Assembly: GCA_024704765.1 (NCBI GenBank)
Contig: JAKMXF010000188.1
Coordinates: forward strand, 669,715-733,714
Origin: Oopsacas minuta
Lineage: Eukaryota > Animalia > Porifera
Direction: 5' to 3'
DNA length: 64,000 nucleotides
Below the pieces are notes generated by a model. The model was not told the origin of the DNA, did not search any database, and was given only the letters and a program-made list of their open reading frames with translations. Each line of letters opens with the position of its first letter. The first letter of the stretch is position 1. Shown here one piece after another: positions 11,357 through 64,000 of this stretch. Made by a program: the position numbers and the translations under genes.

Positions 11357-14300
11357 ATGGCTTCAGGTGATGTGTTCACGAATATGTTCGGTAACACCTT
11401 ACTACGAATTGAAGGTGGAGTAACTAAGGAGATCGAAACATCTACTCTAATCAAAGACGGAGTAATCGCACTCTACTTTTCTGCTCATTGGTGTCCCCCC
11501 TGTCGTACCTTCACTCCTACTCTAGGTGATTGGTACAAAAAACTAACTTCTGGAAGTTTGAAAGATAAACTCGAGATTGTCTTTCTCAGCTCTGATCAGA
11601 GTGAAGAAGAGTTTAAAGACTACTACTCTAGCATGCCCTGGTGTGCTCTCCCCTATTCAGACAGGGAGAAGAAGGTTGATATTTATCTGTACTGTCATTA
11701 GCTTTATTGATTGATATATCTATTTATTTCTTAGGCTGAGCTTTCTAAGAAATTCGGTATCAAAGGTATTCCTTCTCTCATATTCCTGAACGCACAGAAC
11801 GGGAAAATAATAACACGTGAGGGGAGAGAGGTTGTGAATGAGGACCCAGAGGGGGAACAGTTCCCCTGGAAGCCAAAGTCAATTTCTGAAGTCCTCTCTT
11901 GCCTGGAAGACAAACTTGTCGACAATAAGGGAGGACAGTATAAGCTCTCTGAGATACGAAAAGATAAATATCTAGCTCTTTATATTTCAGCTCATTGGGT
12001 GGGTAGCTATATGAAATATACTGGATCCCAGTTATAAGAGACAGTAGGTCTCCGTCTAGAATACATATTCCCCTCCGGGTATGAACTTTTCGATGCCCTG
12101 ACGTCATATTCATTAGGTTCTACTGCAGTGGTTTTCCAAATGTCTTGAATTTATGATGAATATATGATGTTAGGACGGGACGCTAGGGGCGTTTGAAAAA
12201 TAAATAGGCTTAGAGACGGGTTGCGATCAAAAGCTCCGGAACACTATTCTATTGTATATTGAATTTTTGATACGTAATATAATTCTACAGTGTCCTCCTT
12301 GTAAAGTATTCACTCCTAAGCTAGTGGAGGCCTACCAGAAGCATCAGGACAAAGGTTTTGAAGTAATTTTCATATCGTTTGACAGAGATGAAGAAAGTTT
12401 TAAAGATTATTTCGAAACCATGCCATGGAAATCTGCCAATTACGCTGATGCGAACAAACTCGGACCAAAGATAGCAAGGAGATTTGGAGTGAAGGGTAAA
12501 TATTCTCTAATTTGCTTGTTTGTTGATTATTATGTGTTTATCTTTATTCATATATACATAGGTATTCCTACTCTTGTGTTAATGGATAAAAATCTTGAAG
12601 TAATTAACCAGAACGCGAGATCTTTCATAGAGCATGATGAGAAGTTTGAGGTAATAATTCGTATTTATTATATGCTGAATGATTAGCATTGATACTATGC
12701 TATATGACTTTCTAATTACAATTTATCATATATAGTGGGTATTACTTATAAGAACATATCGGTTATAAGAATATATCGGTTATAAGAATATACTTTGATA
12801 TTCCCAAGGGTGTTATCATCAGCGATAACCACTAGGCCGGATCGAGAAAAGTATACATCGTCGCTTCAACTTCTACCTAAGGCAAAAGTTGCCTTTACTC
12901 TTTTCCAGGAAAATGCGAGACATAAATTTGAAAATATTTCGAGTTGACCCTTGCAGTTTTATATTTTTGCTGTGTCACTTTCGCAAACTTGACTTTAAAT
13001 TGTCCGAATTTTCTAATTCCTTTGACTTAGCCCCTATAGATATATTATTTGGTAATAGTAAGTCGCATATTTGCTTTCGAATGATGTATTAGGCTAATTT
13101 CCATGTCCAAAGGTACTCAAGTTGTCAATATATCTTTTGCATATTCTATCATACCCTAATAATATTATCCACCCCCTTTTTTTCCGAAGATTTGCAAATG
13201 CATAATTCTTACAAAAAATAGCTATATCCTCACCAAACTTAGTATAATTCTGTATCTAGATCCAAATTCATCAATAGATTACCACAAAGAAATTTTACCA
13301 ACTTTCCTTATCTCTTGCTCTTAACTTAGTTGCCATTTATCTAGCATGGAATTTATGGTCAATTATTATATCTAAATAAAAACTCACTCAAATGACTCAT
13401 ATTATAGAGTGATTATATTCCTATAATTTATGTAATTTTGAATATGGTAGGATACACGCTTAGTATTGTAGTATTTCATCCTGTTTTTGGTTATCCTGGA
13501 CCCATCCCAGAAAATCTACTCCCGATAAAACTAGATCTATACAATCATTATAGTATGCTTAGAAATGAAGATTCTAAATCAACTAGAGATGATATAGCGA
13601 AAGAATTAACTGAGGTATTAGTGCGTATCTATAATTTGGCTTCCATACCCACAAAATCAGAGCTCCAAATATATCAGTACATCATTTCTGATATTATCGA
13701 GAGAGCTAAATATTACAGAAAAGTATCCAAAACAAGCAATATCCTGACGGTATCCAGCCTATAATTCCGAATTCAATGTCTTGTTCGACGTCTCAAGTTG
13801 CAAATGCCAAATACAAGAAGAAAAAAGTTTTGCTCTCTCGATAATATCAGAAATGATGTACTGATATATTTGGAGCTCTGATTTTGTGGGTATGGAAGCC
13901 AAATTATAGATACGCACTAATACCTCAGTTAATTCTTTCGCTATATCATCTCTAGTTGATTTAGAATCTTCATTTCTAAGCATACTATAATGATTGTATA
14001 GATCTAGTTTTATCGGGAGTAGATTTTCTGGGATGGGTCCAGGATAACCAAAAACAGGATGAAATACTACAATACTAAGCGTGTATCCTACCATATTCAA
14101 AATTACATAAATTATAGGAATATAATCACTCTATAATATGAGTCATTTGAGTGAGTTTTTATTTAGATATAATAATTGACCATAAATTCCATGCTAGATA
14201 AATGGCAACTAAGTTAAGAGCAAGAGATAAGGAAAGTTGGTAAAATTTCTTTGTGGTAATCTATTGATGAATTTGGATCTAGATACAGAATTATACTAAG

Positions 14301-16326
14301 TTTGGTGAGGATATAGCTATTTTTTGTAAGAATTATGCATTTGCAAATCTTCGGAAAAAAAGGGGGTGGATAATATTATTAGGGTATGATAGAATATGCA
14401 AAAGATATATTGACAACTTGAGTACCTTTGGACATGGAAATTAGCCTAATACATCATTCGAAAGCAAATATGCGACTTACTATTACCAAATAATATATCT
14501 ATAGGGGCTAAGTCAAAGGAATTAGAAAATTCGGACAATTTAAAGTCAAGTTTGCGAAAGTGACACAGCAAAAATATAAAACTGCAAGGGTCAACTCGAA
14601 ATATTTTCAAATTTATGTCTCGCATTTTCCTGGAAAAGAGTAAAGGCAACTTTTGCCTTAGGTAGAAGTTGAAGCGACGATGTATACTTTTCTCGATCCG
14701 GCCTAATAACCACTGTATTGTCATTTCACTTCAACACTGATCATGAATGAATTAACAAATCCGGATACGTATTATACGGTATTGCTTTGAATAAGTGCCG
14801 GGGGTAGCACTACACGAAATAAGTAACCGCCAGAGCGCTTATTCAGAGCAATACGAAGGGCATTAGGATCGTACGATCACGATCGCGATACTTTTTTGAC
14901 GATCTGGCGACGATCGGCAACCATTGTTTTATTAAGGATCGGATGTAAGATCGCAATCCTTTTTTGCACAAAAATTTTCGATCATATTTTCGATCATTTT
15001 TGTACTTTGAATGCTACTATCATTAGCGTTTTGTATACTTAGGTTATTGTTCCAAATTTGTGTTCAACAATCAGTAATATTCGTTCGTAGAATGCGTTGA
15101 TTCTCCACCTAAGTTTCTTTTGGCATAAGAAATGATGTAACTATCAAAAATATATGTCTTGAATATTACACAAACGATCGGAAAAATGATCGAGATCGGG
15201 ATCGCGATCGTTTTGAGATAAGGATCTTGATCGGGATCGCGATCTTGTTTAACACGATCGACTAATGCCTTAGTAATACGTTACACTAATAACGCTATTT
15301 GTAATATACAATTGACAACAGCTATCTCGAACACAAAGAGCAGTTCAACTGTAATCCAAATATTATAAGTATAGGATGCTGATTTCTCTTTAGAGTTCGA
15401 GTTAGGGAAGTACGTATATCTGAACCCTGCATAGCAGTATTCCTTAATTTTATTTACTTATAGAATTTTCCATGGAGTGCTAATATCTGTACTACTCTCA
15501 ATTCTGAAAAGGATTTTGCTTATCTAGTTAGTCACCCAGCTGTTCTCTACACAGTATCAGGTGAGTAGTAGCAATAGACCATTTGGATCGATTCAAAAAA
15601 GGTAAAGTGTAATCTCGTTTGAGTAATTCCATCTTTCCCCAAAGGTTAACGCATGTTACCTCTATATCCCTATTGTCATGTCTACCTACCTACCTCCACC
15701 TCCTCTGCATTTAAGAATACATAATATATTCTCCAATCTTTAAAATTATAACTTTATTGAGTATTGGGCTACTGTTATTTATAGAGATTCAGCTCCACCC
15801 CCGCATCTGATTTAGCCTACTAATAATCAATATACTCAGTGTAATTCAGCTATTGGGTGTATAAGCTAGTTAAGAATACAATAGAGATGACGTCTAGAAT
15901 ATTATAATATTAAAATTGACATTTATATATTTTATGAATGAACCAATTTTCCCGTTGATTGTCACAAAATAAATAATTTTGTAATTAATCCTTCCTACCT
16001 TTCATACACATATTTATCAAACAGATGAATCGAAGTTTAACGAAGCTATGCAAATCCTGGATGCTGTCAGTAAGAAATTCATTGCTAACAAACCTCGGGA
16101 CGCAATAATCAATTTCTTCTGCTATGTCGATGACGAAAAGGCTAACAGTGCATGTAAGGAGTTCTTCCACAAGGGGTGTGGTGGTGTAGCAAATCAGGTG
16201 TTTATAATAGACCCTCAAGAGCAGATGAAGAACAAAGAACCTATCACAAAACTAGATGTGGACTCAATCTACACTCAAGCAATGTCGTACATTGAGGGAG
16301 AGCTCGATATGGTTAAAGTCGACTAA
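11357..16326 (+). CDS. NXN: Nucleoredoxin-like protein with tandem thioredoxin-fold (WCPPCR / WCPPCK) domains; at least 5 exons, one internal exon not located
   Basis: Exons 11357-11674 (MASGDV...[13 protein letters not shown]...[15 protein letters not shown]), 11735-11998 ([19 protein letters not shown]...[11 protein letters not shown]...YISAHW), 12291-12495 (CPPCKVFTP...[19 protein letters not shown]...), 12562-12650 ([16 protein letters not shown]...HDEKFE) and the terminal exon 16025-16326. The terminal exon resembles the nucleoredoxin C-terminal region: [17 protein letters not shown]...[11 protein letters not shown]. Order and spacing match vertebrate NXN. Exon 4 ends in phase 0 but the terminal exon needs phase 1, so at least one small exon is missing between 12651 and 16024. 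Confidence 0.72.
12833..14705. mobile_element. Foldback-type transposable element: two perfect 874-bp inverted arms (12833-13706, 13832-14705), a 125-bp unique spacer, and an 8-bp TSD ATAACCAC
   Basis: The arms are reverse-complement identical across all stretches checked. ORF pairs 12889-13092(+)/14446-14724(-) and 13438-13764(+)/13759-14100(-) translate identically. Arm termini are taggccggatcgag...ctcgatccggccta. The flanking direct repeat ataaccac sits at 12825-12832 and 14706-14713. Confidence 0.75.
14858..15269. mobile_element. Candidate non-autonomous DNA transposon / MITE with GATCG-rich subterminal repeats
   Basis: Imperfect TIRs ggcattag(-)gatcgt at 14858 and acgatcgactaatgcc ending at 15269. 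Both ends are packed with GATCG / CGATCGCGATC motifs. An adjacent 18-bp-stem hairpin lies at 14786-14858. No clear TSD was seen. Confidence 0.4.
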
Positions 16327-22407: not shown

Positions 22408-23664
22408 ATGTTTGGTTCTACTACACAAACGATCTATTTTGATACTTCCAAGAAAGAACAATTTTCTCTGACTAATGGTTTGAAGATTCTATCTCAGAAA
22501 CTGAAATCTAAATGGAGACTTCTCTCTTGGAAAGATGATATCTCTATGCTCAGCTTAACCCCTGGACAGGTGTATATAATCCCTGGTCCGTGTGAGAAGT
22601 TCTCAGCTGGAGAGATCAAAGCAATCGCTCAGTTTTTAGAATCTGGAGGTAACCTGATAGTACTCCTGGGGGAGGGAGGGGAGAACAAGTATGACACCAA
22701 TATTAACTTCCTGCTGGAGGAGTATGGTATTATGGTAAATTCAGACTCTGTAATTCGTACTTCTTATTTCAAATATTTTCATCCTAAAGAAGTGTTGATA
22801 ACTGGTGGCCTGCTTAACCGCGAGATAACAAAGGCATCCCTATCACTTCACCATAGTAATGATGGTAACGAGCTCACAATGAATCTGCTATATCCGTTTG
22901 GTTCAACAGTGAGTATTAGAAAACCTGCTATACCTATAGTATCCACTGGAAACGCTTCTTACCCTCTCAACAGACCTGTGTGTGCATTTGCTAAGGCTGG
23001 TAAAGGAAAGATAGCAGTGCTAGGCTCAGTTGCATTTATTAGTGACAATTATATAGAGAAGGAAGATAACTTTCTTTTGCTAGAGATTATACTGGAATGG
23101 CTTACAGGGAATAGTATCAACATTAATCAGATTGATGCAGATGATCCTGATGTATCTGACTACTACTATCTCCCTTACACTTGTAAGCTAGCTAACAGAG
23201 TATACTTCTCATTGCAAGAGTGTGATGAGGTACCACGTGACTTCACTCGTCTCTACAATCACTCTCTATACACATTAGACTCTAGTGTCCTGCCGAATGT
23301 TTTAGAAGCTTACAAAGAGTTCCAAATCAAGCATGAGCCTCTCCAGCTCATCTCTCCTCAATTCGAAGCTCCCCTACCCTCTCTAAACGCAGCTGTATTC
23401 CTCCCTGAGCTGAATGAGAGTGCTCCTCCCCTGTTGGAGCTATACGACCTAGATGATCACTTCTCCTCTCCAAGGATACGATTAGCTCAGCTGACTAACA
23501 AATGTACTGATACAGACCTGGATTACTTTATCCATGAGGCTGCTAAGATATTGGGCGTGGACGATAAGGTATCCTCACAAGAACGGACTTCTAAGCTATA
23601 TCTGGAGTTAATTCTATCTCAGTTGATGGAGTTTAAGTTATCTTCTATTGATGAGCAGTATTAG
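22408..23664 (+). CDS. IFT52: Intraflagellar transport protein 52 (IFT-B complex), intronless
   Basis: 418-aa ORF. It is near-collinear with IFT52 along its length: GNLIVLLGEGGENKYDTNINFLLEEYGIMVNSDSVIRTSYFKYFHPKEVLITGGLLNREI, ...AVLGS..FISDNYIEKEDN..., LTGNSININQIDADDPDVSDYYYLPYT, HEPLQLISPQFEAPLPSLNAAVF, RLAQLTNKCTDTDLDYFIHEAAKILGV. Confidence 0.9.
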   Translation: MFGSTTQTIYFDTSKKEQFSLTNGLKILSQKLKSKWRLLSWKDDISMLSLTPGQVYIIPGPCEKFSAGEIKAIAQFLESGGNLIVLLGEGGENKYDTNINFLLEEYGIMVNSDSVIRTSYFKYFHPKEVLITGGLLNREITKASLSLHHSNDGNELTMNLLYPFGSTVSIRKPAIPIVSTGNASYPLNRPVCAFAKAGKGKIAVLGSVAFISDNYIEKEDNFLLLEIILEWLTGNSININQIDADDPDVSDYYYLPYTCKLANRVYFSLQECDEVPRDFTRLYNHSLYTLDSSVLPNVLEAYKEFQIKHEPLQLISPQFEAPLPSLNAAVFLPELNESAPPLLELYDLDDHFSSPRIRLAQLTNKCTDTDLDYFIHEAAKILGVDDKVSSQERTSKLYLELILSQLMEFKLSSIDEQY

Positions 23665-24235: not shown

Positions 24236-24716
24236 GTTACAGTCATCAGTGGCGGCAAAGGGCTGAGTTATCTTTATGGAGCGGACAATATTCAATACCT
24301 GAGTGGGCTTCGCTTACTCGCGCTATGTGGCTTGCGAACATTAAGTGTCCGGGTATGCTCGGCACTTAGCACCTCGAATTGAGTAAATTATATCTATCAT
24401 TAAAATCCAAAAAATTTACATAGTATCAAACTTGGAATGCGATATATGGAATCAGCCTACTGTGTTACCACTGTGTTGTGATTAGAGCAAGTCTATATCT
24501 ATATTATGAGATTTATATGATTTGTTTATTTTATCTTCTTTAAAACAACAAATTTACACATGATTACCTTAATTATTATTATTGATTAATAATTCGTAAA
24601 TTTCATATTGTTATTGTGCGGTCCTAATTAGATACAAGTCCTATACCCACTCTTAACTGATGGGGCGCTAGCCCAATCTAGCCCCATCTAGCCCCATGCT
24701 TGCGCCGCCACTGACA
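24236..24716. mobile_element. Candidate MITE with CAGTGGCGGC termini (member of a CAGTGGCR...GGGGG...CAAG family)
   Basis: Left end gtcatcagtggcggcaaag. Right end gcgccgccactgacag (reverse complement ctgtcagtggcggcgcaag). Related fragments or hairpins lie at 42175-42230, 42381-42428 and 63866-63912. Confidence 0.35.
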
Positions 24717-25727
24717 GTCACCAATATGCTTTAATAATTCTTGTTGGATAACCAAATTTAACGTATATAACCTACACGCATGGTTTGTGTACAACCTTTT
24801 TGTATAATTTACATACGATTGTTAGCTATAGCTATAGAACGATCATGGCTTTATTAATATTTAGATAATATGAGGATGTAATGTATCAATACAGTGATTA
24901 TACACCTCATTCAATGCAGATGTATATATGTTATGCTAGTTGATCGTGTCATTTAATGGTATTAGAATTCCTATATTAACTCTATCAGCAAATTAATACA
25001 GATTCTTACTCAGTATAATAGTCAATGTATAGAATATTAAATTGTATGATAAAACACTCACATTGGCGTATTTCTAGACATGAGATATCTATAATCATTG
25101 TTGTGTTAGAACTTCGTATCGTTATCTAATTTCTCGTGACAACATTGTTACGATTTTATCTCAGATTGAGTAATCTAACCTCATTCACCTTTGCTACTTC
25201 TTACCACCTATAAATATGGATGAATTATATCCAATATTCCATAATTAGTTAAGCTTAGTACCTGGGGTAGTAATATAAAAAATTACGATTTTGTGAATAC
25301 AGATTTCCCATGCTGTTCTAACTGAAATTTATTATAATATTACAAGAGAATAATTGTCTGTCTGTCTGTCACGTCATTTTCGGGTATACCAGTTCTCGTA
25401 GAAGTTAAGGTTCATACGAAACTAAGCGTAATGGTCTAAAACCTTGGGAAACAGAATTACAATCATTCCATCTCTTTGAGATTTAGTGACAAATGTCTAT
25501 GCAAATCAGATCAACATTAGTAAGCTATACTAAGTTGAATATTTCTTGTCTGAGAGCGTTCTTAGGATTGAAATTCTGTAGTGGGAGTTTACTTTGAGTT
25601 TAGGAAACTTTTTGAAACAATTATACTGCCTGTATATATTTGTTTTGAATAAATAAGCATTTTGTGCTTGTGTGTGTGTCTTATCTGAGTACGTATATTT
25701 TATAATTTCCTTCACTAGATAGCTAAA

Positions 25728-29504: not shown

Positions 29505-30186
29505 TTATACACGTTATTAATTTATGTACTGTTTCAGCAAATATATTGCAACGTCATAAAGTGCTCGACAATATCAAAATTTGTTGATTATTAGCCAACA
29601 TCTTCGATTTCGATTCCTGAAACAGAGGCATAGCCTCTATAAAGAAGGTAATGTTTAGGTGGCTTACTAAGTCATTAGGCTTGGGATTTGGTTACCACTG
29701 AGCCACCTAATTTGTCGAGAACTGCAAATTGAATCAGAATTTCGCATTTTCCAGTTTCTCATATGTAAATTTATTTTTGCTTTAATGAATACAAGTAAGC
29801 AAATATTTGAAATCTTGAAATAATCATATAGACTTGCTTAACGCTTATACATAGGTAATCAAGTACGCTCACTACCGCCTCACTAAGCTGAATCCAAATT
29901 TTGCATTTTCAAGTTTCTTATATGTAAATAGTTGTTGTTCTTATAGTTGTTGTTTTTATGAATGTAAAGTGAACAAATGTCTAAATTGCCACAACAACTC
30001 CGTGTTCAATGGTTATCCTAGTGTAAGGGGTACGCAGTTTTCAATTACGATGATTGATTGTCAACAACGTCTTGTGAATATTAGTGTATCTATTATTTCT
30101 AGATGCCTACTTCTAGTGCAACTGGAGAAGTTGAATTTGAGCTTCAAATCAGACAATTAATACATAAAATTGAAATTCAGTTTTGT

Positions 30187-30757
30187 GAAACAAACGTAAT
30201 CCAATATACTGTAAACAAACGTAATCCAATATACTGTAAACAAACGTAATCCAATATACTGTAAACAAACGTAATCCAATATACTGTAAACAAACGTAAT
30301 CCAATATACTGTAAACAAACGTAATCCAATATACTGTAAACAAACGTAATCCAATATACTGTATACAAACGTAATCCAATATACTGTAAACAAACGTAAT
30401 CCAATATACTGTAAACAAACGTAATCCAATATACTGTAAACAAACGTAATCCAATATACTGTAAACAAACGTAATCCAATATACTGTATACAAACGTAAT
30501 CCAATATACTGTAAACAAACGTAATCCAATATACTGTAAACAAACGTAATCCAATATACTGTAAACAAACGTAATCCAATATACTGTAAACAAACGTAAT
30601 CCAATATACTGTAAACAAACGTAATCCAATATACTGTAAACAAACGTAATCCAATATACTGTAAACAAACGTAATCCAATATACTGTAAACAAACGTAAT
30701 CCAATATACTGTAAACAAACGTAATCCAATATACTGTATACAAACGTAATCCAATAT
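30187..30757. repeat. Minisatellite: 25-bp unit AAACAAACGTAATCCAATATACTGT in about 23 tandem copies
   Basis: Direct reading of the sequence. Copies are near-identical, with a recurring A-to-T variant (tgtatacaaacg) at copies spaced 5 and 10 units apart (30361, 30486, 30736). The three overlapping minus-strand ORFs here are frame artefacts. Confidence 0.95.
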
Positions 30758-31066
30758 GAAATATAGTAACTGAAGTCAACGTTAGTTGAGGAGAATTATA
30801 TAAAATGGTGAATTCTTTTGGATTGATATAAAATAAGGGTGCCCGTATCTTGGAGGTCCGGATCTCGGAGGTTCGACTGTATTACATTTATCTTAGAATA
30901 ACTTGAATAACTTGACATTAACCTCCTTCTCACAGGGTCCCATTGAACTGGCTCATGTGTCTACTCATCTTCTATATATTTCAATCTACACATTTTCCAT
31001 CAAATGTCTCAATATAATTATACTTAATGTCTTTTATTCTATCCTAATAAGCTCCATCTACACAGC

Positions 31067-31896: not shown

Positions 31897-34800
31897 GCTC
31901 TTTTAGGTCACAATGTATTAATATTCGCTTACGGTGTAACTAATGCTGGTAAGACCTACACTATGGCTGGTACTCGATCTAATCCAGGAGTTCTTCCACG
32001 AGCTCTCGACAGTATCTTCCAAGCAATAGAGCACCAACAACCTACTAACATATTTTACAAACCTAGAGGTGAGGCTATACATACTTATTTATTATTATAC
32101 GAGCCGCTTCGCTTATTTGCGGTTTGCGAACATTTTGTGTCCACATGGGACTCGGCAATTCATGCCTCGAAGTTAGCAAAGTAGTAAATTGCAAAATTGA
32201 ATTGATGAATTAATATTCCTATTTGTTTTACTTTATATTCATAAAAACAACCAAAAATTTACATATGATTAATTCAAAAGTGTTAAAATCAGATTCAGCA
32301 CTTTCGATATATTTTTGCCAAGTTTTATTCAATTTTGTATACTTTCTTGGTATACAGCCATAGTTGGGCGACATCTCAGTATTGAGAAATCAGAATTCAA
32401 TACAATATTGCATAAATCCTTTCCTTGACAACAGACAAATAGACAAACAAACAAGCAAATATGGCAATTTAATAATATACAGGGTACCTCAAAAGTTCTG
32501 CAACAAATTTTTACACCAATTTTTTATATCAAACCATAATTCAACTGCTGTTAAATTCATACTTATGGACAAAGGCTATATAATATATTCAATAAACTGT
32601 GATAGTTCAATTCTGGTCTTTTGTTATGTCAGGTATATCTGAACTACAGAAGAGGTCTCCTATTATTCATTTATTTCTAAATGGTAAGAAGCAGAATCAA
32701 ATTCTAAAAGCCCTTGGTTCACCGAAATTTTCACCATCGTTGATATCCCACACGATAAAACGATATATTGAGACAGGCGATATCGTAGATAAGCAACGAT
32801 CAGGTCGGCCAAGAACAATTAGGACTCCTGCTAACAAGAAAAAGGTTCGTCAGATTTTAACTCGTCGGCCCACGATGTCGGAATAGATAAGGAATCTGCT
32901 CGACGAATAATCAAGAAAGACTTAGGTATGAAATGTTTCAAACGAAGTAGAGTAGAGTCTCTTAATGGCCAGGGAATTAATAAGAGAATCCAAAGATGTC
33001 GTAGACTGCTGGATCGACTCAAAAATGTCAACAGTGATTCAATTGTATTTTCGGATGAGAAGATCTTCTGTATTGAGGAGAAGTGGAACTCTCAAAAATT
33101 CGCGGGTTTATTCCTTAACACGTAATGACATCCCAGAAAACTTAAGAAGTGTCCAGAAATTACAACACCCAAAAGTATTATGGTGGGCGGGAATTTCAGT
33201 TTTTGGGAAAACTCCGTTAGTATTCATACCCAAAGGTACAAAAATTAATGCTCAGGTATACAAAGATATTATACTGGAGAAACATGTCTTAGCAATTGGT
33301 TTGACCTTCATGAAAAACAAGGCATGGCTATTTCAACAGGATGGTGCACCGGCTCATACCGCTAAAATATCTCAAGATTGGTTGTCAAGTAAGATCCCAG
33401 CGTGTTTGAACCGTGACGAATGGCCCCCTTCAAGTCCTGACCTAAACCCTTGTGATTATTATTTGTGGGGAAGACTAGAGACACTAGTAAACAATAGATC
33501 CCACAACAGTATTCCAGCACTAAAACGAGCGTTAGAGAAAGCTTGATGCGAATTAGATCAGGATGAGGTCGCTCGGGCATGCAAATTATTTCTATCCAGA
33601 CTTAAAGATTGTCTGAAGGCCGGAGGGAATAGATTTGAAAACAAGTAGAGCCAAATATTTTCGTATATGATAGTTAGACATAATAGCATTTTCTTAACAA
33701 AATATTAGTCTGGTTATATGCTTTACATGTATAAGAATTACATTTAAATTTTGTTGCAAAACTTTTGAGACCCCCTGTAGATTATTGATTATGCTTTAAT
33801 CGTTGCGAATCTTACGATATTGCCCCACTCTGTTATCCCTGGCCTTCTAAAAGTAAACCTGTGAACTATGCTTCAATTCAGAGAAATTAATATAATATAC
33901 GGTGTACCTGCATAAACCGATACTCGTTTGGGACATGAAAATTTTGTCGGATTATGCAGGTGAATTTGTATTGTCGAATGCTGTTTCAGATCCGAAACTC
34001 TGTGTCGGATTATAAGGTGTTCTGGATTATAAGGTGTTCTGGATTATAAAGGTGTCGGTTTATGCAGGTTCCACTGTAGTCATAATATATAGGGGCTCAT
34101 AGATTTGCATCGCTAAAATAATCGATTTTGATGCTTCCTGAAATAACGAATTGTAGATTTGGCTAATCATATCAAATAGTTCGATTTTTTAGAGTAAAAT
34201 ATATACATTAACTCTGCCCGCTACTGATATAACATTACCTTATATTAAACATAAAGCAGCTGTGTTGCATGTGTTTTAGAAGTCACAATATGAACTATTT
34301 CTGTAGCTTTAATGCTTTATATACATACATGCATTATTATCCCTAATTCATACTTTTCCGTGATTTTTGATATTTAATGGCTCTCTTACAATTATATAGG
34401 GTTCGCTAATACAGTACGACTAGATAGAGAGAGTGCAGATCATGAAGCAGTTAAAAAGCGCAAGTTCTTGTCCAGAAAACTAACTAGACATAATCTTATT
34501 TCTGATCTAAGCAAGCTGTCAGATGGCACTGATTCTCAGACCTCCACTATATTCTCTACTCACCCTAGTGACCAGGAAATGGGAGAATCCTTAAAAAGCT
34601 CTAGAATTAATCCAGATCCCTTAGACTGTAGGTAGGTATATCTCTTAATATAAATTGCTGTAATTCGGCATAACATTCCATAATTAATTGGATTCATTAT
34701 ATATTGTAGTGCTCTGGAGATGGAGCACAATGAAGCTAGCTATTCAATATGGGTATCCTTTGTGGAGATACATAACGAATCGATATACGACCTGCTAGAT

Positions 34801-41779: not shown

Positions 41780-43321
41780 TCTCTCACTAAATACAGAATT
41801 TAGAATTTTGACTAGAACTCATTTCTTTTCTCTATAGTGATTCTTATGCACAAAGTACAAGTACATGTAGTAATCAGTGTACATCTTTGTATTCTGTTGA
41901 ACGAATGAATTCAAATAAGGTTATTCTGTGATATTAATATAGTGGAACCTCCAAAAGCGGGGTAAGTAAACTTCAACTAACATCAATTTTTATCCAAATG
42001 GACTTCTGAACAAGGAAGCAGGGAAAGATATTTGGTACCCAATCAGGCTATCTACAGTACCCGCTTCGGAAGGTCCCACTGTATTTATTTTTATCGGTTA
42101 ATTCATGAAATGATGTACGTACACACTTTGGAGTTCCATAACTTAAATCATGTACCCTGCTAGTGGTAATAGGCCCAGAGCAGTGGCGGATACTTTTGAA
42201 TTATTGGGGGTGCTCAACAAATTAACCAAAATTGATTTCCTATGAGAGCACTAAATTGTATTTATCGAGAATACCTATAGCTATCTTTTCAACTTGATCA
42301 CAAATGTATACTTTGTGCACAATTATCAAACTTAAATAAAACTTTTCTTCGCCCACACTTTCACCGAAAATATTGGCCAGTGGCACTAGGGGGTGGTCAA
42401 GCACCCCCTAGTGCCACTGGCCATGACGTAGGAAATTAAACGGGTATTTTGGTCACATGTTTGTTCTTGGTTTGTGTCAGTGTTACTATACAACCATCAG
42501 TGCATCTTGCTACTCAACCATAAGAGTAGCAGACATTATGTATTATTATATCCCTTTTAAACATCCTTTTCCAAACAATTTTTGCTTACATGCGATAATT
42601 GCTTCTTGAGGGATGGAAATGTGCAGTTAATCGCTTTTGATCACTAAATTCTGGTGATTATTTTGGACATTACTGCAATATTCATTCATATCTATCAATC
42701 AATGTATTGTCAATTCATACATTCAGTAATTAGTTATGGGATTACTTATATGTCGGCTAGTTGACAAATAAGTAATTATGGCCGACTTATAAGGATTTAG
42801 CCGCATATAAGTAATCCCATTAGTTATTAGTTTTCTTCTTTTGAAACATGCTGAGTGGAGCTGACTTAACAACAGAAGAACACCTTGTCTTTCATTTGCT
42901 CCTGGTAAGCCAGATCCTGGACCTCTCCTGCTCTTAGCTCGGCGAGATTAAAATACACATATAAGTACAGTACTCCCGTCTGACTATTTATCCTCAATTC
43001 TTGAGGTTTTGTGCATGATGAAGTGTTGCATTTATGGGAATTTAGTATTAACTGTTTCCATGCAACATGCTTTGTTGAGAAGCACCCAAACCTTTTATAA
43101 CAATACCTATTAACTTTTGATGTAACAAAGCAACTAAATGATCGAAAGTGACCAGTTTAACCTTCCACGCTTAGTTGTATAAATTAGTTGATTAAATTAT
43201 CTAAGATAAGTAAGATTGCTTTGTGAATTTGTGAAAGCATCAAGTTACCATAAGGGATGATACCAAGGGATTGTGAATAAACTGATTGTACCTTATTTGT
43301 TTGTAGTATTTGTGTTTTAAA

Positions 43322-44623: not shown

Positions 44624-44785
44624 CTAATTGGACTTGATTATTTTGTAATTAAGTTTTTTACTATGCAGACTAAACTATACCCAGTATAGTGGCTCAGTAC
44701 TAAAAGGTTGACTTTTCTTAGCATATATGTGTGTGTTCACTCTCCACTTCACACCTTTTGAGATTAACACACAAAATTGGCATGT

Positions 44786-45054
44786 ACAGTACACCCTCGC
44801 TAATCCGAACACCACTGTTACGATTGCAAAATAATACGTCGGATTAACAAATGCATTGAAAAATACTATAGAATCTGGGAGGACTTTTTTCGAAAGTGTA
44901 CAAACGATGGAATGGGGCCTAACATGCGTAATATCGTATTAGATATTGATTTGTTGTAGAATTGGATATATATCGGCTATGTTTTTACGTTTGAAACAAT
45001 TTTCAAAAAGATTGTATAAGCTTAGGCCCTTTTCAGATTAGCGAGGGTCTGCTG
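44786..45054. mobile_element. Tc1-like MITE (about 270 bp) with TA TSD; TIR CAG(T/C)A(C/G)ACCCTCGCTAATC
   Basis: Left cagtacaccctcgctaatccgaa at 44786. Right ...ttcagattagcgagggtctgctg ending at 45054. TA on both flanks. A solo left-end copy lies at 48057-48090. Confidence 0.5.
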
Positions 45055-45411: not shown

Positions 45412-47469
45412 TTAGAATATTTGTAGACAGTTGTCGACCTTCATGTCACCATATGTGATAATGCCAGTTTTTTCTATGAATATGCAAGAGGGACGGAATG
45501 TTTGACACAGCCCATGTCCTGTCTCACAAACTGTTTCTATGAATTTCCCATCCAAGTCGAAAACTTTGATGGAATTGTCCCAGAAATCACATATGTAGAT
45601 TCTCACTTCATCTGTGTTAGGATTTTGGAACAGGTTGAAGTTATATGCTCCTGCTATCTGATCCTCCGTGAGTATGGACTTTATGAGTTTTCCTTGTAGA
45701 GAGAACATTTGGAGAGGAGAGGGAGATCCTGTGAAGAGACATATGACGTAATCATTAGTAGTCTTCATGTCCTGTAGCCATGGATACCTGTTCGTTATCT
45801 TTGTATGCAGGATTGGTTTTAGTGGATATTCTTGATCTTTACCGAGAGGATCTAGTTGCATTCGTATTAGACTCGGCTTGAGAGTCCCCACATACAAATG
45901 CTTACTGTTAGAGGTTGTGCAACAAGCCTGTGGTATTTGGAAAGTATGTTCAAGTTTCATGTCAGATATAAGCTGACTATCTTTCCATGTGAAGCTGAAT
46001 CGTGATAGCGAACTACTTGTAGAATAGCACACGAATACAAACTGATTGAAGTTGGCCAATGAGGCTGGAGTAACCAGTGAATGAGGATGATGATACCATT
46101 CTGTAGCTGCAAGATCAATTGCTCTGTAGCGTGAGACTGTATCCCCGTATCTATCCCCTACTATTACGTTTTCTTTAATAACGATTACACTAGTGGGCGT
46201 GTCTAATTGGTGACCCTCAACTCCACCTCTATCAACACCAGATGCTACAGGAATGTTTCTCTCTGCTTTGGGTGGAGCTACTTGCATGGGCTTGTTATCA
46301 GTGTCGATCACAATTGAAGGAATGTTTATCCTGTTGGTGTAATAGTGACGGATCTTTCTAAGTACTATATCATATATTTGCTTTAATTCCTTATCGTCTT
46401 CATTCTTCCTGACAAGATATTCTAGCGACCTAGCGTCTCTGTACAGGAAAGAAAGTTCCTTGAATGTGAAAATCACATCCTTTTCAATTCTTTCCTGTAC
46501 AGTCTCTATCACTCTGCATTTCCTTTCTATATCATCTGCATTCCTAGTTTCCAATTCGTCTCTAGCTATCGCATACTCCATCTTAAGTCTGTTAAGCCTC
46601 AGGTCATACTCCTGACGTGTGATACCCCCGGGAAGTAGGTCTCTCTTGGACGGTTTTATAGGTTTCATGTCTTTCTCTATTTCAGGATCTACATAGAAAA
46701 TGAATTCACCCTCTATTACGTGTGTCAATCCCTCTTTCATAACTTTTGAACACCAATGCTCTGGAATGGGATAATTTCTCATCTTTAAGATCTCTTTCTT
46801 CAGTCTCAGTCTTAAAGATTCGTATCTGTTTACAATTATACTCTCGATTTGTTTGGGAAGTTCAATGCTTAGTTGGTTCTGAATTTTATAAATCTTTTTC
46901 TCAGCTGTCACCTTCCACATAATGAGACCGTTTAGGGAGTACAGAGAAGGTTCTGCTAGAGTTCTCTCTATATAGAAGAGGCTCTCTTTGTATTCGATAG
47001 GGAGCCAATTATTGATAACTAGTAGAGTTATTTTCTTTAAATGATGGTTGTATCGCTCCGTGAGGGAATTTCTGGATGGGACAGGGACTATTTTACTTTT
47101 TATTTTAGTATCAAATTCATTGTAAAAATGTGGTAGCTTGTTTAGAATCTTTTCGCCTAACTTTTGGTTGAATGGGACTATCATCCGTTCCATCTTCATG
47201 ACAACAGTTGATATCCATTCAATCATTTTGTACTCCTTGATTATGACGCAGAAGCGATCCTTTACAGAGTCACGCATTTCTGTGGACAGTATTGAAGCCT
47301 CTTTGGAGTATAGCGTTTCCATTTCCAACTCAAATCCTTTAATCAATTTTCGAATTTCGCTAACTTCGATTGCTTCCAAGTCAATGGACCTAATTTCCTT
47401 CAACCTATCCTCATACCTTTTGAACATCTCAGAATTTGATGGTGTTACCTGGTTCAGGTTTGTTGCCAT
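45412..47469 (-). CDS. Coiled-coil protein with degenerate NHL-like C-terminal repeats; a paralog of the gene at 1-744; intronless
   Basis: 685-aa ORF. It shares the MATN... start and the motif PV(A/V)SG(V)..GGVEG with the gene at 1-744. The C-terminus has an NHL-like YICDFWDNSIKVFDLDGKFIETV (compare YVADKSNNRVQTFNEYGKYLFKF). The long N-terminus is coiled-coil-like. Confidence 0.6.
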   Translation of the reverse strand: MATNLNQVTPSNSEMFKRYEDRLKEIRSIDLEAIEVSEIRKLIKGFELEMETLYSKEASILSTEMRDSVKDRFCVIIKEYKMIEWISTVVMKMERMIVPFNQKLGEKILNKLPHFYNEFDTKIKSKIVPVPSRNSLTERYNHHLKKITLLVINNWLPIEYKESLFYIERTLAEPSLYSLNGLIMWKVTAEKKIYKIQNQLSIELPKQIESIIVNRYESLRLRLKKEILKMRNYPIPEHWCSKVMKEGLTHVIEGEFIFYVDPEIEKDMKPIKPSKRDLLPGGITRQEYDLRLNRLKMEYAIARDELETRNADDIERKCRVIETVQERIEKDVIFTFKELSFLYRDARSLEYLVRKNEDDKELKQIYDIVLRKIRHYYTNRINIPSIVIDTDNKPMQVAPPKAERNIPVASGVDRGGVEGHQLDTPTSVIVIKENVIVGDRYGDTVSRYRAIDLAATEWYHHPHSLVTPASLANFNQFVFVCYSTSSSLSRFSFTWKDSQLISDMKLEHTFQIPQACCTTSNSKHLYVGTLKPSLIRMQLDPLGKDQEYPLKPILHTKITNRYPWLQDMKTTNDYVICLFTGSPSPLQMFSLQGKLIKSILTEDQIAGAYNFNLFQNPNTDEVRIYICDFWDNSIKVFDLDGKFIETVCETGHGLCQTFRPSCIFIEKTGIITYGDMKVDNCLQIF

Positions 47470-49082
47470 TTCAAATATACTTTTAAGTCAGTTTAGATTT
47501 TCGTTAATAGAAATATTGTAGCAATTCTTTTTATAGAAATATTTCTTCTTCATAATTTGAAGATAAATTAAGTTATACTTTTAATGTGAAGTAATGTGTT
47601 TCAGAATGTGGCTTACTCGAAACAATTGATTACACAATTGTTTATTCTGAAAATCATACATTTCTGAAACTGAAATGATTAGAAATGTTGTTTGTAAGAA
47701 TTTATTCATTTCCGAGATCACTTCATGTACGTACATACATACATTAACCAGAAACGTAAAGTTTAGGGCATAGAGAATAAATACCTGTAACTCCAAAACT
47801 GATGGAGTTATACTATGTTAGGCCGGTTTTAATTTGGATGGTGGACAAATGTTCACTGTCGACCAACTTTGAACCGTTAAAACCTTAAAATCCATCAGTT
47901 TGGTAAGTATAGGTTCATGTTCAGATTCTATCAAATACCCTGCCGAATTTTTGCTGTGACCTCCGATTAGTTTTCCAATTAAGCGAAGTGGAATATAATG
48001 TTCGTATAAAAATGCGAAATGCCATATATTTATTTCTACGAAAGTCAAATTCAATACAGAACACCCTCGCTAATCCGAACAACACTATTCCAGTTACAAA
48101 ATAAATCTTTCGAATTAGTGAATTGCATTGAGTCCAGCGGCGTTGGAAGCGAATTTCAAGTGAGGGGGGCCGATTTCTGAATTCAAATAAGTGTTAATAA
48201 ACAATGTATTTATGTAAAGAAAATACATTTTTTGGGTCTCCTGAGATAAGAGACGCTATTTGGTAATTACATTAAAAATATTGTCTAGGTCAAGGCTTTT
48301 GATATGGCGGATCAACCCCATTTTTGACACACCGGACATTTGCCAATACACCCGTGCAACTGTTCCAGCTTTGCAATCCACTACAAGTGGCGCTCCTACC
48401 TAACTAACAAGTAACAACACCGGTCTATGTTATGTGATTCTCTATCTTTGATAGAAATCTGATGATATTGTATTAGCATTTTATAATTAGATGCAAAGAT
48501 ATTTCAAGTACTGTGTCTATTCCCGTTGTCAGGGTAACATTTGATTATCGATTCTCTCTCAAAATTATAATTTTAGTTACAGGTATAATAGAATTCATCA
48601 ATTTGTAATGCAATCTAAATTTAGATTCTTTGGAAAAGTGATAGGTATCAGGTTCTGGTAGCAGTAGGTATTCTGTTTCACTAGCTGGAGTATCTCTTAT
48701 TATTATAAATCACTTTTACAAGAGAATGCCTTTTTATTTATCTTTGTTATCTGTCTTACCTCCCATCTCTATTCATTCTATTCTGCACTCAACCAACATC
48801 AGAAAAATATTGACAGTAGTCCTGATTCTAGATTTCTAATATTAGCATACCTCTTCTAATAATTTTTTGGGATCTTCGAAAAATCCCCTGAAATTATTAT
48901 CCAATCCAGGGATCCCGAGTGGGTTATCAAGTATGTTTAGGTATAAATTTCTACTGTCTAGCTGTCCCTTGATATTCTAATCCAGAGTCTACTATACTCA
49001 CTGGTATTGAAGACAATAATCTCTGTATACAATTAGTAGGGCTTATTTAGTTTGTATTCAGTTTATTGATTTAGTGTGTAGA

Positions 49083-58633: not shown

Positions 58634-60442
58634 ATGGACACCCCAAGAATGAGCAGTCTCCTGGCATGGTTATGCACATTCCCACACTGTAACAATATTA
58701 CCAAATTTGAATCTCTAACTGATGGGAGAATTCTAGCATTAAGTTTGCATAGAATAGATCCTGCATTTTTCACTAAAGAATGGTTGGTTCAAATTGCTGA
58801 GGTAGGTGAAAGTAACACTCAATTGAAACAGAGAAACATCGGAAAGATTGTGAAATCAGTGGTTGATTATAATCGTGAAGTGTTACAGGTATCTAACACA
58901 TCTATTGGGAACTTGAATGTAGTTGAAATCGTGAATGGTAGCAATCATCAGGATCTCTGCCAGCTTATTCTGGCTCTGCTTAACATAGCTGTAAACTGTG
59001 AGAAGAAGGAAGAACACGTGAGTAGAATAATGCAGCTAGACAGTGCTGTACAGAAGGACATTATGGAGATCTTACAGGAGGGAATGGAGGTACAGGAAAT
59101 CGTGCGTGAGGCGAATAATCATGTAGATATACACTGGGATCTGGAGATGGTGACGAAGGAGAGAGATATCCTATTTCAGGAATCTACTCATAAGGAAACT
59201 GCATTGAAATCTATGGAGGAGGAGAAAGATGCTTTGCAATGTGAACTGGACCGCTTCAGAGAGCAGGTGAGCTCTCTGGAGGAGAAATCTCACAGATGTG
59301 TAGAGTTAGAAATACAGGTGGAACAGCTGCAGGATGATCTGACAAGTTTACACCGTAGTAGGGTAGAGCTAGAAACTTCTGTTGAAGAATTGAAAATAAA
59401 GAACGAGAACTTAGAACATGATTTAGGTATCAGTCAAGATAAGAACATCGATTATCATAACAAGCAATCGGAAATGGAACACATGCGAGATAAGCTGGAT
59501 GAAATGCCTCAGTTGGAGCTAAAACTTGCCAATTACGAGAAAAAATTATTGAGACTAGAAAATGACAATAGGAATGTTCTACTTCTGAAGGAAAACTTGG
59601 TTTTTCTCCAAAATAAGAACAAAAAATTAATTCAAGAAAAGTTGAATATGGAAAAGGGTATGAAAGAGCTTGAGGAGAAGAGATTTCATTCTCTGCAACA
59701 AAACGAACAGCTACAGTTAATGCAATCTGAGATTAACGAATATAAAACTAGTTTAACACAAGCCGAGAGGCAACTGATCAACTCAGAAGAACAAGCATCT
59801 TCTCTACAGAATGACCTTAGGAAAATAACTGAGGAGAGAGATAACTTGTTATGTGCTTTAACAAGCACACCTGAAGATCCTAACTTACTATCTCTAGAAG
59901 CTTCTCTCCTGCCTGGTGACAGACTAGACTCAATTACAGAAGTATTCACGCCTGAGATGAAAGAACGACTGGCTAGATTGGAATCAGATAACTCAGAATT
60001 GAGAAGGAAAATACAGCTCACTAGCTCAAGTAGTAAAGTTGAAGGAGGAGATGAAATAGAAGCGGAAAGATCACTCTCTCCTGGAAATATTGAAGTGTTT
60101 GAGAAAGAACTTCAAATTGACGAACTCAAAAACGAGTTAAGTTCTCGTAACAAAGAAGTTAGCAAACTTAAGAACTATCTCGTAAAGATGAAGAAAATAA
60201 AGATAAAACCTGAAAAAGATGAAGTGATGCCACCTCGTATGGATCATGAAGATAGACTAGTTATGGCTTCATGGTATAGAATGGGTCTGGAGGTACACAA
60301 TAGAGCAGATCTATATAAGGCACCTGCAGCTGGTAATAATACGCGAGTCGGTCAGGATGTAGCTAATATGAAATATGATTCTACCCCAAAGAAAGATATT
60401 GAACTACCCCCACTTAAACCACAGGAACCTAATGACCAATAA
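58634..60442 (+). CDS. HOOK: Hook-family microtubule-tethering/dynein adaptor protein, intronless
   Basis: 602-aa ORF. The N-terminal Hook domain LLAWLCTF...ILALSLHRIDPAFFTKEWL...LILALLNIAVNCEKKEEHVSRIM matches the Hook consensus (LLTWIQTF...IDPAYF...LQLILGCAVNCE). A long coiled coil follows, with the conserved C-terminal LVMASWYRMGL (compare SAWYNMGM). Confidence 0.82.
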   Translation: MDTPRMSSLLAWLCTFPHCNNITKFESLTDGRILALSLHRIDPAFFTKEWLVQIAEVGESNTQLKQRNIGKIVKSVVDYNREVLQVSNTSIGNLNVVEIVNGSNHQDLCQLILALLNIAVNCEKKEEHVSRIMQLDSAVQKDIMEILQEGMEVQEIVREANNHVDIHWDLEMVTKERDILFQESTHKETALKSMEEEKDALQCELDRFREQVSSLEEKSHRCVELEIQVEQLQDDLTSLHRSRVELETSVEELKIKNENLEHDLGISQDKNIDYHNKQSEMEHMRDKLDEMPQLELKLANYEKKLLRLENDNRNVLLLKENLVFLQNKNKKLIQEKLNMEKGMKELEEKRFHSLQQNEQLQLMQSEINEYKTSLTQAERQLINSEEQASSLQNDLRKITEERDNLLCALTSTPEDPNLLSLEASLLPGDRLDSITEVFTPEMKERLARLESDNSELRRKIQLTSSSSKVEGGDEIEAERSLSPGNIEVFEKELQIDELKNELSSRNKEVSKLKNYLVKMKKIKIKPEKDEVMPPRMDHEDRLVMASWYRMGLEVHNRADLYKAPAAGNNTRVGQDVANMKYDSTPKKDIELPPLKPQEPNDQ

Positions 60443-61105
60443 TATTCATTTTAGCAAATTCTTAAAGAGTAAAATCTGTCTAATCATAATATATTGTGGT
60501 CTAACACATACTAGACTGACAATTGATACAATAAAATTTCTATAACATTTTGTAAATGCTTTGAATTACTGTGCATTATTAACTTATTTATCCTCTTAAG
60601 AATGATATATTACATCTCATTATCGAGATGTTTAGGATTATTCTTTGTAAGATAGCATCTTTAATACACTACATATACACGATAGCCTTCTTTAAAGTTA
60701 TATACAGTGGGCATTGCTTATAAGATCAGCGTTTATTAATAATATCGGTTATAAGTATATGTTCTAATAAGCGATAATAACTTATCTGGTTTTATTTATA
60801 GGGAAGTAGGGAGCACAAAATTATTGCTGCTATAGGATATTATTCTGAATTTCTTAAGAGGTACTTTCGGTTAGTACGTACTAATTATTGTTCCCAAAGG
60901 GTACGGTACGTCTTATCCGAGTTGGAGAGCTCTACAGTATAATAAATATTCTGCAAATGAGCAAAATTAATTTCGTGATGTCATAACTTGTAAGTTGTAA
61001 TGTATATTATAGCAGGCGTAGAAAACATCACGATTCATAGAGGAAACAAATAATTAATGTGTTCCTTGAACTTATCTGTAATCTATGTGTGCTTTCCAAT
61101 TATGT

Positions 61106-62318
61106 TCGGATTAGTTAATTAATCTAATTAATTAAGTGAGGTTTTTAGGTTATGAAATAAACAGGGGGCTAACGAATCAGCTGGTAATTCCTATCTTGGA
61201 TTGTAGGTAGCATCCTTTATAGGTTTGTTTACTATTGACAATTATTGTAGTTTTCTAGTTCTGTGGAATACTTTATCATATTCTCGTTTATGAAGGAAAT
61301 TATCGAACTCATTAATTCCCAATTAATAAATATAATTATACATATACTACTTTCCCGTTAAGTCTTTTGATAAGGTAGAAAGAATTGTCACATCAGCGAG
61401 TATAAAGTAATGCCAGTAAAATGTTAACCTTATTTCACATATGAGTGTGAGGTTTATTACAGACATAGATTAAGAGAATAATCTGATATTTTTCTAACAA
61501 CGATCGAGTTACACAGGTCTAATTTACATTACTCGACTATCTTTAAATTGTCGGATTTTGAAATAGCAAGGTTCCGGATTAATGAGGTTGTTTTCTGTAC
61601 AAAAACGATCCGTGAACAGAAATAATGTCGGTTTAGGGAAATTCCGGATTACACAGGTGTCGGATTACGGAGGTTCCACTGTATCTATAATATCATTTTC
61701 GCAGGTAAATTCCGCAGGCACGCTATAAGTAGCTGCAGGCCCAGCCTGGGGGGGATGAGCTGGCGCTGGCAAAGCCATTTGATAGGATTATATCTTCTAA
61801 ATTTCCACGGGAAATAAGTGTGTTGATTACTGCTACAAAGTTAAACTCATAATGATCCAGAATAATATCTGATAGATGAGTTTACTGATAATTAATACAT
61901 TAGAAAGCCAGAAATATGTTGAATATAAAAGATCAAATTTAATCTATGTCTGTAATAAACCTCACACTCATATGTGAAATAAGGTTAACATTTTACTGGC
62001 ATTACTTTATACTCGCTGATGTGACAATTCTTTCTACCTTATCAAAAGACTTAACGGGAAAGTAGTATATGTATAATCACATAATTAGAATTTATAATTA
62101 CTCTAATATGTATAATTATATTTATTAATTGGGAATTAATGAGTTCGATAATTTCCTTCATAAACGAGAATATGATAAAGTATTCCACAAAACTAGAAAA
62201 CTACAATAATTGCCAATAGTAAACAAACCTATAAAGGATGATACCTACAATCCAAGATAGGAATTACCAGCTGATTCGTTAGCCCCCTGTTAGTTTCATA
62301 ACCTAAAATCTCACTTAA
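61106..62318. repeat. Large imperfect palindrome (arms about 61106-61480 and 61940-62318, roughly 95% identical with indels) around a roughly 460-bp core
   Basis: The reverse complement of 61940-62290 reads ...ttaagtgagattttaggttatgaaactaacagggggctaacgaatcagctggtaattcctatcttggattgtaggtatcatcc.... This matches 61130-61215 and continues through ...tgtgaggtttattacagacatagattaa. The core holds a truncated Tc1-like MITE end (61545-61681) and a GC-rich segment. Confidence 0.7.
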
Positions 62319-64000
62319 TCCGAATTATAGTTTACTAGTATGTTGAAAATTTTGTTTACTTACAAGTGTGTTGAATCTAGTACACTGCTAGTATAATATT
62401 ACACAACCATAAGGCTTGCATTAACTTTTAACAACTTTTTCGTTTTCTAATAATGTTGAATTATTGAGCTTCCGACGGGCAAGGGCCTGTGCCTGCCAGG
62501 ACTTGCTGGCAGGCACAGTTAAATTTTCCGCAGGCCCGGTATGACCTGCGGATTGTTAGACTTTGTGCCAAAAATTAATTAATTAATTGATACTCCAGCA
62601 TATTACTATGCATACCTTCTCCGTATTTGAGAAATAAGAATGTACTTAGATTGTGAATACAGTGGATCCTGATCCTATCAAAATATGGTCAAGTGACCCA
62701 TCAAATTGCTGGAATTTTCATGTTGAGTATGAATATGGTTGTTAAAATTGGTGTTTACATTGATTCGATGCGATTTGAAGAATTTACAGCCTGGGAGATG
62801 TTCCGGCGATTAGCTGACCGCCCGCCCAGAAAAATAAATAATTCGCGATACCTCCATACAATACCCATATATTTTTACAATATATTTAGCTATCTCTGTG
62901 TCATTTTCATACTAGTTACTTGTATCAAATGAACAATTTTATTGCTATGCTGCCCAACTATATATGGTATATGTAGAGGAACATAATATTTACCAGTATA
63001 ATGCAATCTGTAATATACATCTGGATCAATAATTATGATATACGTACTATGCACTATTGTACATCCATTAGAATACTTATCTCTTAGGCTCTATCTCCCT
63101 CCATACATGGAAAAGTTTAGATAAATGAGAGAAGATTGAAATTCAATAATATATAACTACTGTCTTCTCAGAGTAAGCCGCGAGATCTCGTCTGTACAAT
63201 AATAAGCACCCAAGTGCTGTTCAGGGACTTTTTGTATAGGCATAGGCATCACCTCACGCTTTATCTGGCCTCGACATAACTGGTTCTGAGATATATTGGT
63301 TAAAACTCCTAAAATACCACTGGAGTAACAAGAAGGTTACATACTATAGTCTAGTTAATACACTGACTCTATGAGTCAGGGATAGAGCCATCGATGGGCC
63401 GGAAGGAACAACTGAAGAGGACCATTTATAGGGTACAGTTTCACTTAATTTTGCTATACACCTCGCTCGAGCGAAGTTATGCATATTCATTGACCTTCCT
63501 TTAATAGTATATTATAAATATTGTAATCGATAGTATCACATATTTAATTCGTAGTAAAGAATCTGATTAACAATTATTATCTGACTTCGAGGTAAAATCT
63601 GCTGAGTCCATCCACTTCTTCTGTACTTTGCACCAAGTGTTTTGTGAGCACGATGGCTAATTACAATATCATTTCGACTGGTTTCTATGGAACTAATTTT
63701 GTCCTTTAGTAATGTATTTATTCTCCTGTATTTGCAACGCTTATTTTAGCTGAATTATTCATTTACTTCACTTCTGTAAAGGATTAAATCACCCAATAAA
63801 CACTTAACAGTCTAGCTCTAACTCCTCGATTACATTACATATACGCCAATTCGTAATTTGATCAGTGGCGTAGCCACGGGGGGGCAAGGGGGGGCACTTG
63901 CCCCCCCTTCCTATTGTGAACTAACGTTTTTGTCCGGCCTTTAGTAGTGTTCCTATTTCAACCAAGTACTGGGAACTGGAATAAATTATGATTTACCATT

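Follow-up and report, generated by a model that had tools for sequence, protein, structure and literature searches.

A spaced inverted repeat in a Hook3-like/BTB intergenic spacer of the hexactinellid sponge Oopsacas minuta, probably a foldback-type repeat

An intergenic inverted repeat of about 1.2 kb overall, adjoined by GC-rich mini-hairpins, lies in the genome of the sponge Oopsacas minuta and raises two questions: how did it arise, and does it do anything? We addressed both within the 64,000-nucleotide stretch of DNA that contains it (hereafter the window). The window is nuclear hexactinellid DNA of about 35% GC, whose long ORFs correspond to vault-protein, saposin-like, NHL/TRAF-like, and Hook genes. 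One ORF (22408-23664) matches a GenBank protein of O. minuta exactly, and another (58634-60442) shows 100% identity to the NCBI entry 'Hook-like protein 3-like [Oopsacas minuta]'. The inverted repeat starts 660 bp past the Hook stop codon, with this Hook3-like gene on one side and, outside the window and past its end, a BTB gene on the other. The O. minuta genome has been reported to consist of 34% interspersed repeats, with 15.4% DNA transposons and 18% unclassified (PMC10280926), and the 3.5 kb surrounding the locus are rich in transposon pieces, namely a MITE end in the loop of the inverted repeat, a solo TIR at 62658, and a CAGTGGCG element at 63863. Taken together, this is nothing unusual for an intergenic spacer rich in repeats, and the inverted repeat itself is probably a foldback-type repeat.

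Anatomy and conservation of the inverted repeat

A repeat search of the window returned two collinear inverted blocks, 61143-61345/62106-62308 (203 nt, 98% identity) and 61330-61473/61939-62082 (144 nt, 99%), which were merged by MAFFT and global alignment into a left arm at 61105-61473 (369 bp, plus strand) and a right arm at 61939-62324 (386 bp, minus strand). The two arms are identical at 341/348 aligned positions (98.0%, 7 substitutions) and differ by three indels of 21, 1, and 39 nt. Between them lies a spacer, or loop, of 465 bp (61474-61938), which is single in the window except for the MITE portion described below. The large spaced palindrome reported in the preliminary description was borne out by the inverted symmetry of this self-alignment, and the arm limits given there (61106-61480 and 61940-62318) fall within 1-7 nt of the measured ones. 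The same description took the repeat to be older than the 12.8-kb foldback in the same window, and arm identities of 98.0% versus 100% fit this greater age, provided that the arms have not been reset by gene conversion.

The outer end of the left arm is TTCGGATTA, and a 21-nt ATTA-type simple-sequence insertion occupies 61114-61134. The right arm carries 39 extra nucleotides at 62078-62116, bounded by copies of an 11-nt direct repeat, ATATGTATAAT (62067-62077 and 62106-62116), a pattern typical of slippage deletions, here one in the left arm. No similarity was detected between the outer flanks beyond the arms (32/300 shuffles score equally well), and an extension of the palindrome into the flanks was dropped as not significant. 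The substitutions are unevenly placed: all 7 fall within the outer 156 nt of the arms, and the inner 212 nt are identical, the 39-nt indel aside. In a post-hoc test, the probability of this outer clustering under uniform change was about 0.003-0.006. That the differences crowd into the outer arms suggests that the loop-proximal arms may have been homogenised by intramolecular gene conversion from arm to arm, which would hold whether the repeat came from a transposon or from a duplication.

The longest reading frame in the arms has 49 codons, and a six-frame pseudo-protein of the right arm found no relatives at E<=1 among 5.8 billion predicted proteins. Neither a second copy nor a solo arm turned up in the remaining 62 kb of the window or in the 87 kb searched from related sponges, and a 21-mer from the arm had no match in the JGI metagenomes. 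Rfam gave no match at gathering score in the window, and no tRNA genes were found there. An Rfam candidate of the mir-302_2 family at 62331-62395 was rejected, as its 24.9 bits are well below the gathering score (70) and it folded no better than shuffles.

For conservation, we used syntenic regions of related hexactinellids from ENA assemblies, in which Hook is 68-77% identical (contigs L001-L004). Gene order is kept in these relatives (vault protein, Hook, a spacer of about 4-5 kb, and the BTB gene), and within the Hook-BTB spacer the species align only over the ~150 bp that directly follow the stop codon of Hook. The arms, the spacer between them, and the hairpins have no counterpart in the syntenic Hook-BTB spacers of the four hexactinellid contigs, which for arms and spacer argues against a conserved function. 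The spacers of the relatives carry inverted repeats of their own, unrelated in sequence, plus perfect 30-35-bp palindromes; palindromic debris therefore seems to be general at this position, rather than a conserved element. The perfect palindromes have arms of 30-35 bp and loops of 6-7 nt and lie at 14611-14676 and 15148-15224 of L001 and at 14609-14674 of L003, these two contigs being ~99% identical haplotypes of one sample. We rejected TTCGCAGGT as the TIR of an inverted-repeat element in L001 because the match rests on an allele-specific SNP (CGCCGG in L003). In a related sponge, the pol region of an LTR retrotransposon (RT, RNase H, and integrase) was seen within the vault-protein gene region (L004 659-4536).

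Loop content, GC islands, and downstream hairpins

The loop contains the right-end portion of a Tc1/mariner-type MITE at 61553-61693 (plus strand), in which the motif (T)CGGATTA recurs and whose terminus, ...GGAGGTTCCACTG, is flanked by TA. The stretch 61624-61693 is securely homologous, and the CGGATTA run reaches back to about 61553. This piece is 79% identical to positions 1885-1961 of L002 and 83% identical to 34037-34088 of the window; its right end reads ...GGTTCCACTG directly followed by TA, and both related copies are also TA-flanked. The short elements to which these copies belong (33898-34082 of the window and 1784-1949 of L002) have the terminus CAGTGGAACCTGCATAATCCGACAC preceded by TA, TA duplications, and repeated CGGATTA. 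Going by the TA duplication and CAGT terminus, we infer that this would be a Tc1/mariner-type MITE family common to glass sponges. The reverse complement of the right TIR was unmatched above shuffles in 61441-61600, so the copy in the loop, with its left TIR undetectable, is truncated or decayed. A complete MITE in the loop, as a MAFFT alignment had hinted, was ruled out by a shuffle test. Outside the inverted repeat, a putative solo TIR-like remnant at 62658-62671 (plus strand), reading CAGTGGATCCTG after TA, matches the terminus of the MITE family consensus at 13/14 positions.

Other Tc1/mariner-type and tandem sequences were seen elsewhere in the window. A mariner-like element occupies 32479-33790, with termini TACAGGGTACCTCAAAAGTTCTGC... 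next to TA and a broken DDE transposase ORF at 32965-33546, and is directly followed by a 185-bp MITE of the CAGTGGAACC family at 33898-34082. A third Tc1-like family (TA followed by CAGTACACCCTCGCTAATCCGAAC) is represented by two left-end fragments in direct orientation, at 44785-44846 and 48055-48104, which flank an NHL-repeat ORF at 45412-47469. A tandem array at 30063-30887 comprises about 33 copies of a 25-bp unit, mostly 99% identical.

The GC islands noted against the AT-rich background were confirmed: 61700-61779 has 61% GC and 62460-62539 has 59%, versus ~30% around them. The first island (61698-61779, plus strand, 61% GC) holds TTCGCAGGTA, TTCCGCAGGC, and GCTGCAGGCCCAGCCTGGGGGGG and has no stable fold of its own (z = +1.5). 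The core had been described as carrying repeated TTCCGCAGGC motifs. There is one exact copy in the core (61710), beside the degenerate TTCGCAGGTA at 61698, and another outside the inverted repeat at 62526, and two matches at <=1 mismatch are within what chance alone gives (23/100 shuffles). What stands of the claim is the degenerate neighbour and the location of the motif in a direct repeat of 25-27 nt, with copies at 61702-61726 (CAGGTAAATTCCGCAGGCACGCTAT, plus strand) and 62516-62542 (CAGTTAAATTTTCCGCAGGCCCGGTAT, plus strand, just 3' of the first hairpin), a repeat that is locally significant (0/300 shuffles) and near chance over the whole 3.5-kb spacer.

Two GC-rich hairpins lie downstream of the right arm, as the preliminary description had it, at coordinates 7-13 nt away from those given there (62494-62527 and 62539-62565). 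Hairpin 1 (62487-62518) is perfect, with a 13-bp stem and a 6-nt loop (CTGTGCCTGCCAG-gacttg-CTGGCAGGCACAG), and is followed by TTAAATTTT; hairpin 2 (62527-62552) has an 8-bp stem and a 10-nt loop (TCCGCAGG-cccggtatga-CCTGCGGA). Folded as DNA, the pair reaches -26.3 kcal/mol (z = -4.6), with 0/200 shuffles as good. GC-rich perfect hairpins with a stem of at least 10 bp number three in the window versus none in 20 block shuffles. The other two are palindromes at 42374-42423 (22-bp stem, 6-nt loop) and 63878-63907 (11-bp stem, 8-nt loop), with CAGTGGC-type ends. Hairpin 1 together with TTAAATTTT (62487-62527) is built like the intrinsic terminators of bacteria. A scan of the JGI metagenomes with the hairpin-1 stem pattern gave a single match, a terminator-like hairpin on a presumably bacterial contig of ~60% GC (L005), which we judged to be a chance match.

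A resemblance of the hairpins and GC islands to the CAGTGGCG family had also been proposed, and here the comparison failed. Against the four CAGTGGCG-type ends (24247, 24713, 42181, and 63863) and the CAGTGGC palindrome at 42374, the best of 36 local-alignment tests gave p = 0.013, which, allowing for their number, is at shuffle level, and nhmmer found nothing at E<10 between the hairpins or GC islands and the CAGTGGCG elements; only a general GC-rich hairpin look is common to them. An 8-bp target-site duplication is absent at hairpin 1, the flanks being GCAAGGGC and TTAAATTT. Judged by these alignments, the hairpins are not members of the CAGTGGCG (hAT-like) MITE family. An element bounded by CTGCAGGCCCAG and CTGTGCCTGCCAG was likewise rejected (A-B inverted p = 0.19, not significant). 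The hairpins and islands are separate small relics, their source probably being GC-rich transposon ends, and not part of the palindrome. A 467-bp MITE with termini CAGTGGCGGC... is present at 24239-24721, with an 8-bp flanking duplication, ACAGTCAT/ACAGTCAC (24239-24246 and 24714-24721; 7/8 positions), which suggests a hAT-type origin of the CAGTGGCG family.

Origin and possible function of the inverted repeat

The reading that we prefer, and hold tentatively, is that the inverted repeat may be a decayed non-autonomous long-TIR ("foldback-type") DNA transposon. The architecture agrees with it, with long inverted arms and a short loop, all without coding capacity. We also counted in its favour the lack of ORFs and protein relatives, the repeat-rich genome, and the transposon-littered surroundings. 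That long-TIR elements exist in the O. minuta genome follows from the intact 12.8-kb element in the same window, which has perfect inverted arms of 878 bp (12833-13710 and 13828-14705), a 117-bp loop, and the 8-bp duplication ATAACCAC on both sides. The region 12825-14713 is a bona fide transposon insertion in its own right; its arms begin TAGGCCGGATCGAG..., and the length of its duplication is hAT-like. At the inverted repeat, the octamer TAATCCGA is found at both outer ends. It occurs 8 times in the window versus 1.8 expected (0/100 shuffles), and the other six occurrences are all in ends of Tc1/mariner-type elements. The flanks at the exact repeat limits, TTATG and TTATA, agree at 4/5 positions and lend weak support.

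A convincing target-site duplication was not found, the best 8-mers (7/8) being at chance level over 2,025 boundary pairs, and the termini of the inverted repeat match no known superfamily consensus and are unlike those of the 12.8-kb element. We counted the missing duplication against a transposon, because a duplication of 8 bp ought still to be legible around arms that have kept 98% identity, unless homogenisation of the arms came long after the insertion. A derivation of the arm ends from decayed MITE ends was rejected, as the similarity did not reach significance once multiple testing was taken into account, and TTAA beside GTGAGG does not serve as a piggyBac-type duplication, the inverted homology running on outward to TTCGGATTA.

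If the repeat is a transposon, its history could be read as follows. An element with arms of ~370 bp and a 465-bp loop would have inserted by cut-and-paste. The loop would have gained, or already had, a Tc1/mariner-type MITE, now recognisable in its right-end portion. The termini would then have decayed through simple-sequence expansion and point changes, and one arm would have lost 39 bp by slippage between the 11-nt direct repeats. Intramolecular gene conversion between the arms may finally have kept their spacer-proximal two thirds identical.

A local inverted duplication not due to a transposon appears nearly as likely as a transposon remnant, although doubtful when taken by itself. In such an event, an intergenic stretch of ~370 bp would have been copied in reverse 465 bp away, by template switching or break repair, around an old MITE fragment, with the indels arising later. 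This would agree with an arm sequence that is single-copy in everything searched (the window, the related loci, the JGI metagenomes, and the proteins) and that has neither a target-site duplication nor canonical termini. The arms are young (98%) and the MITE in the loop has no recognisable left TIR, which is most simply explained by a duplication formed around old sequence. The truncation of the MITE falls within some 40-80 bp of the arm/spacer junction. On the other hand, we read the junctions at 61473/61474, 61938/61939, and 62324/62325 directly and saw no microhomology or other junction signature, and an intact long-TIR transposon is present in the same window. Small spaced inverted duplications are also rarer than transposon-derived repeats in a genome of which one third is repeats (PMC10280926).

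It is improbable that the arms are two independent head-to-head insertions of one interspersed repeat of ~370-390 bp, comparable to an inverted Alu pair. The outer and inner limits are common to both arms, as for full-length copies of a family, but the individual arms lack flanking duplications, terminal inverted repeats, a tail of poly-A or simple repeats, and a tRNA-like head, the window holds no other copies, and the confinement of all 7 substitutions to the outer 156 nt is not expected of independent copies.

With regard to function, a hairpin-RNA locus, whose transcript would form ~350 bp of double-stranded RNA to be diced into endogenous siRNAs, seems very unlikely. If transcribed, the repeat is predicted to fold into a near-perfect long hairpin of -679 kcal/mol, a stability that is trivial for such a repeat, and the identity of the inner arms has been maintained. 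Against this reading, no sequence or equivalent structure is conserved at this position in the four hexactinellid contigs, Rfam gives no match, and no target can be named, as the arms match nothing else in the window. We give even less credence to the more specific proposal of a candidate hairpin-RNA gene in which the inner 212 bp would be held identical, by selection or conversion, through an siRNA role, and in which the hairpin and T-run at 62487-62527 would mark the transcript end. The inverted repeat looks like selectively neutral repeat debris in the Hook3-like/BTB spacer, with no evidence of function found.

In chimeras caused by missed adapters, the arms are perfect and the loop is either absent or the size of an adapter; the present arms differ by 7 substitutions and by indels of 21, 1, and 39 nt, and their loop measures 465 bp. 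An assembly artefact, whether a chimeric PacBio read or mis-joined haplotypes, is highly improbable: the assembly is a PacBio CLR and Illumina hybrid made with SPAdes, SSPACE, Pilon, and GapFiller (PMC10280926), and the ~2% divergence of the arms is comparable in magnitude to the ~1% seen between haplotypes of a relative (L001 versus L003), but the arms differ by 21- and 39-nt indels, the 465 bp between them are unique sequence with a genuine MITE portion, and unique sequence carries on at both sides.

The locus matters little in itself, as one more example of inverted-repeat and MITE debris, of the kind filling the intergenic spacers of a compact sponge genome in which most repeats are unclassified. 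Palindromes of this spaced size can be recombinogenic and can yield double-stranded RNA if transcribed. The restriction of arm differences to the outer arms gives a slight indication of gene conversion between arms in a hexactinellid.

Comparison with known systems

Hairpin-RNA genes are known in animals, for example, the hpRNAs of Drosophila. The inverted repeat is like these in geometry, being a long near-perfect inverted repeat with a loop; neither conservation nor a target was found for it. Template-switch, or fold-back, inverted duplications are replication-based rearrangements. They likewise consist of an original and an inverted copy of single-copy sequence around a short native spacer, whereas the present repeat has no junction microhomology and no ancestral unduplicated allele for comparison. 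Its loop piece shares the right terminus, the TA flank, and the CGGATTA repeats with the Tc1/mariner-type MITE family whose terminus is CAGTGGAACCTSCRTAATCCGACAC preceded by TA, but differs in its undetectable left TIR and is a member by its right end alone.

The 12.8-kb element (12833-14705) has the same architecture as the inverted repeat at 61105-62324, but no sequence similarity to it. Foldback and long-TIR elements are known from other genomes, for example, the FB elements of Drosophila and long-TIR MITEs. Compared with these, the present repeat is without a readable target-site duplication, a terminal motif, subrepeats in the arms, or a demonstrated second copy; it is like them in its long arms, which fill most of the element, its short non-coding loop, and its intergenic site.
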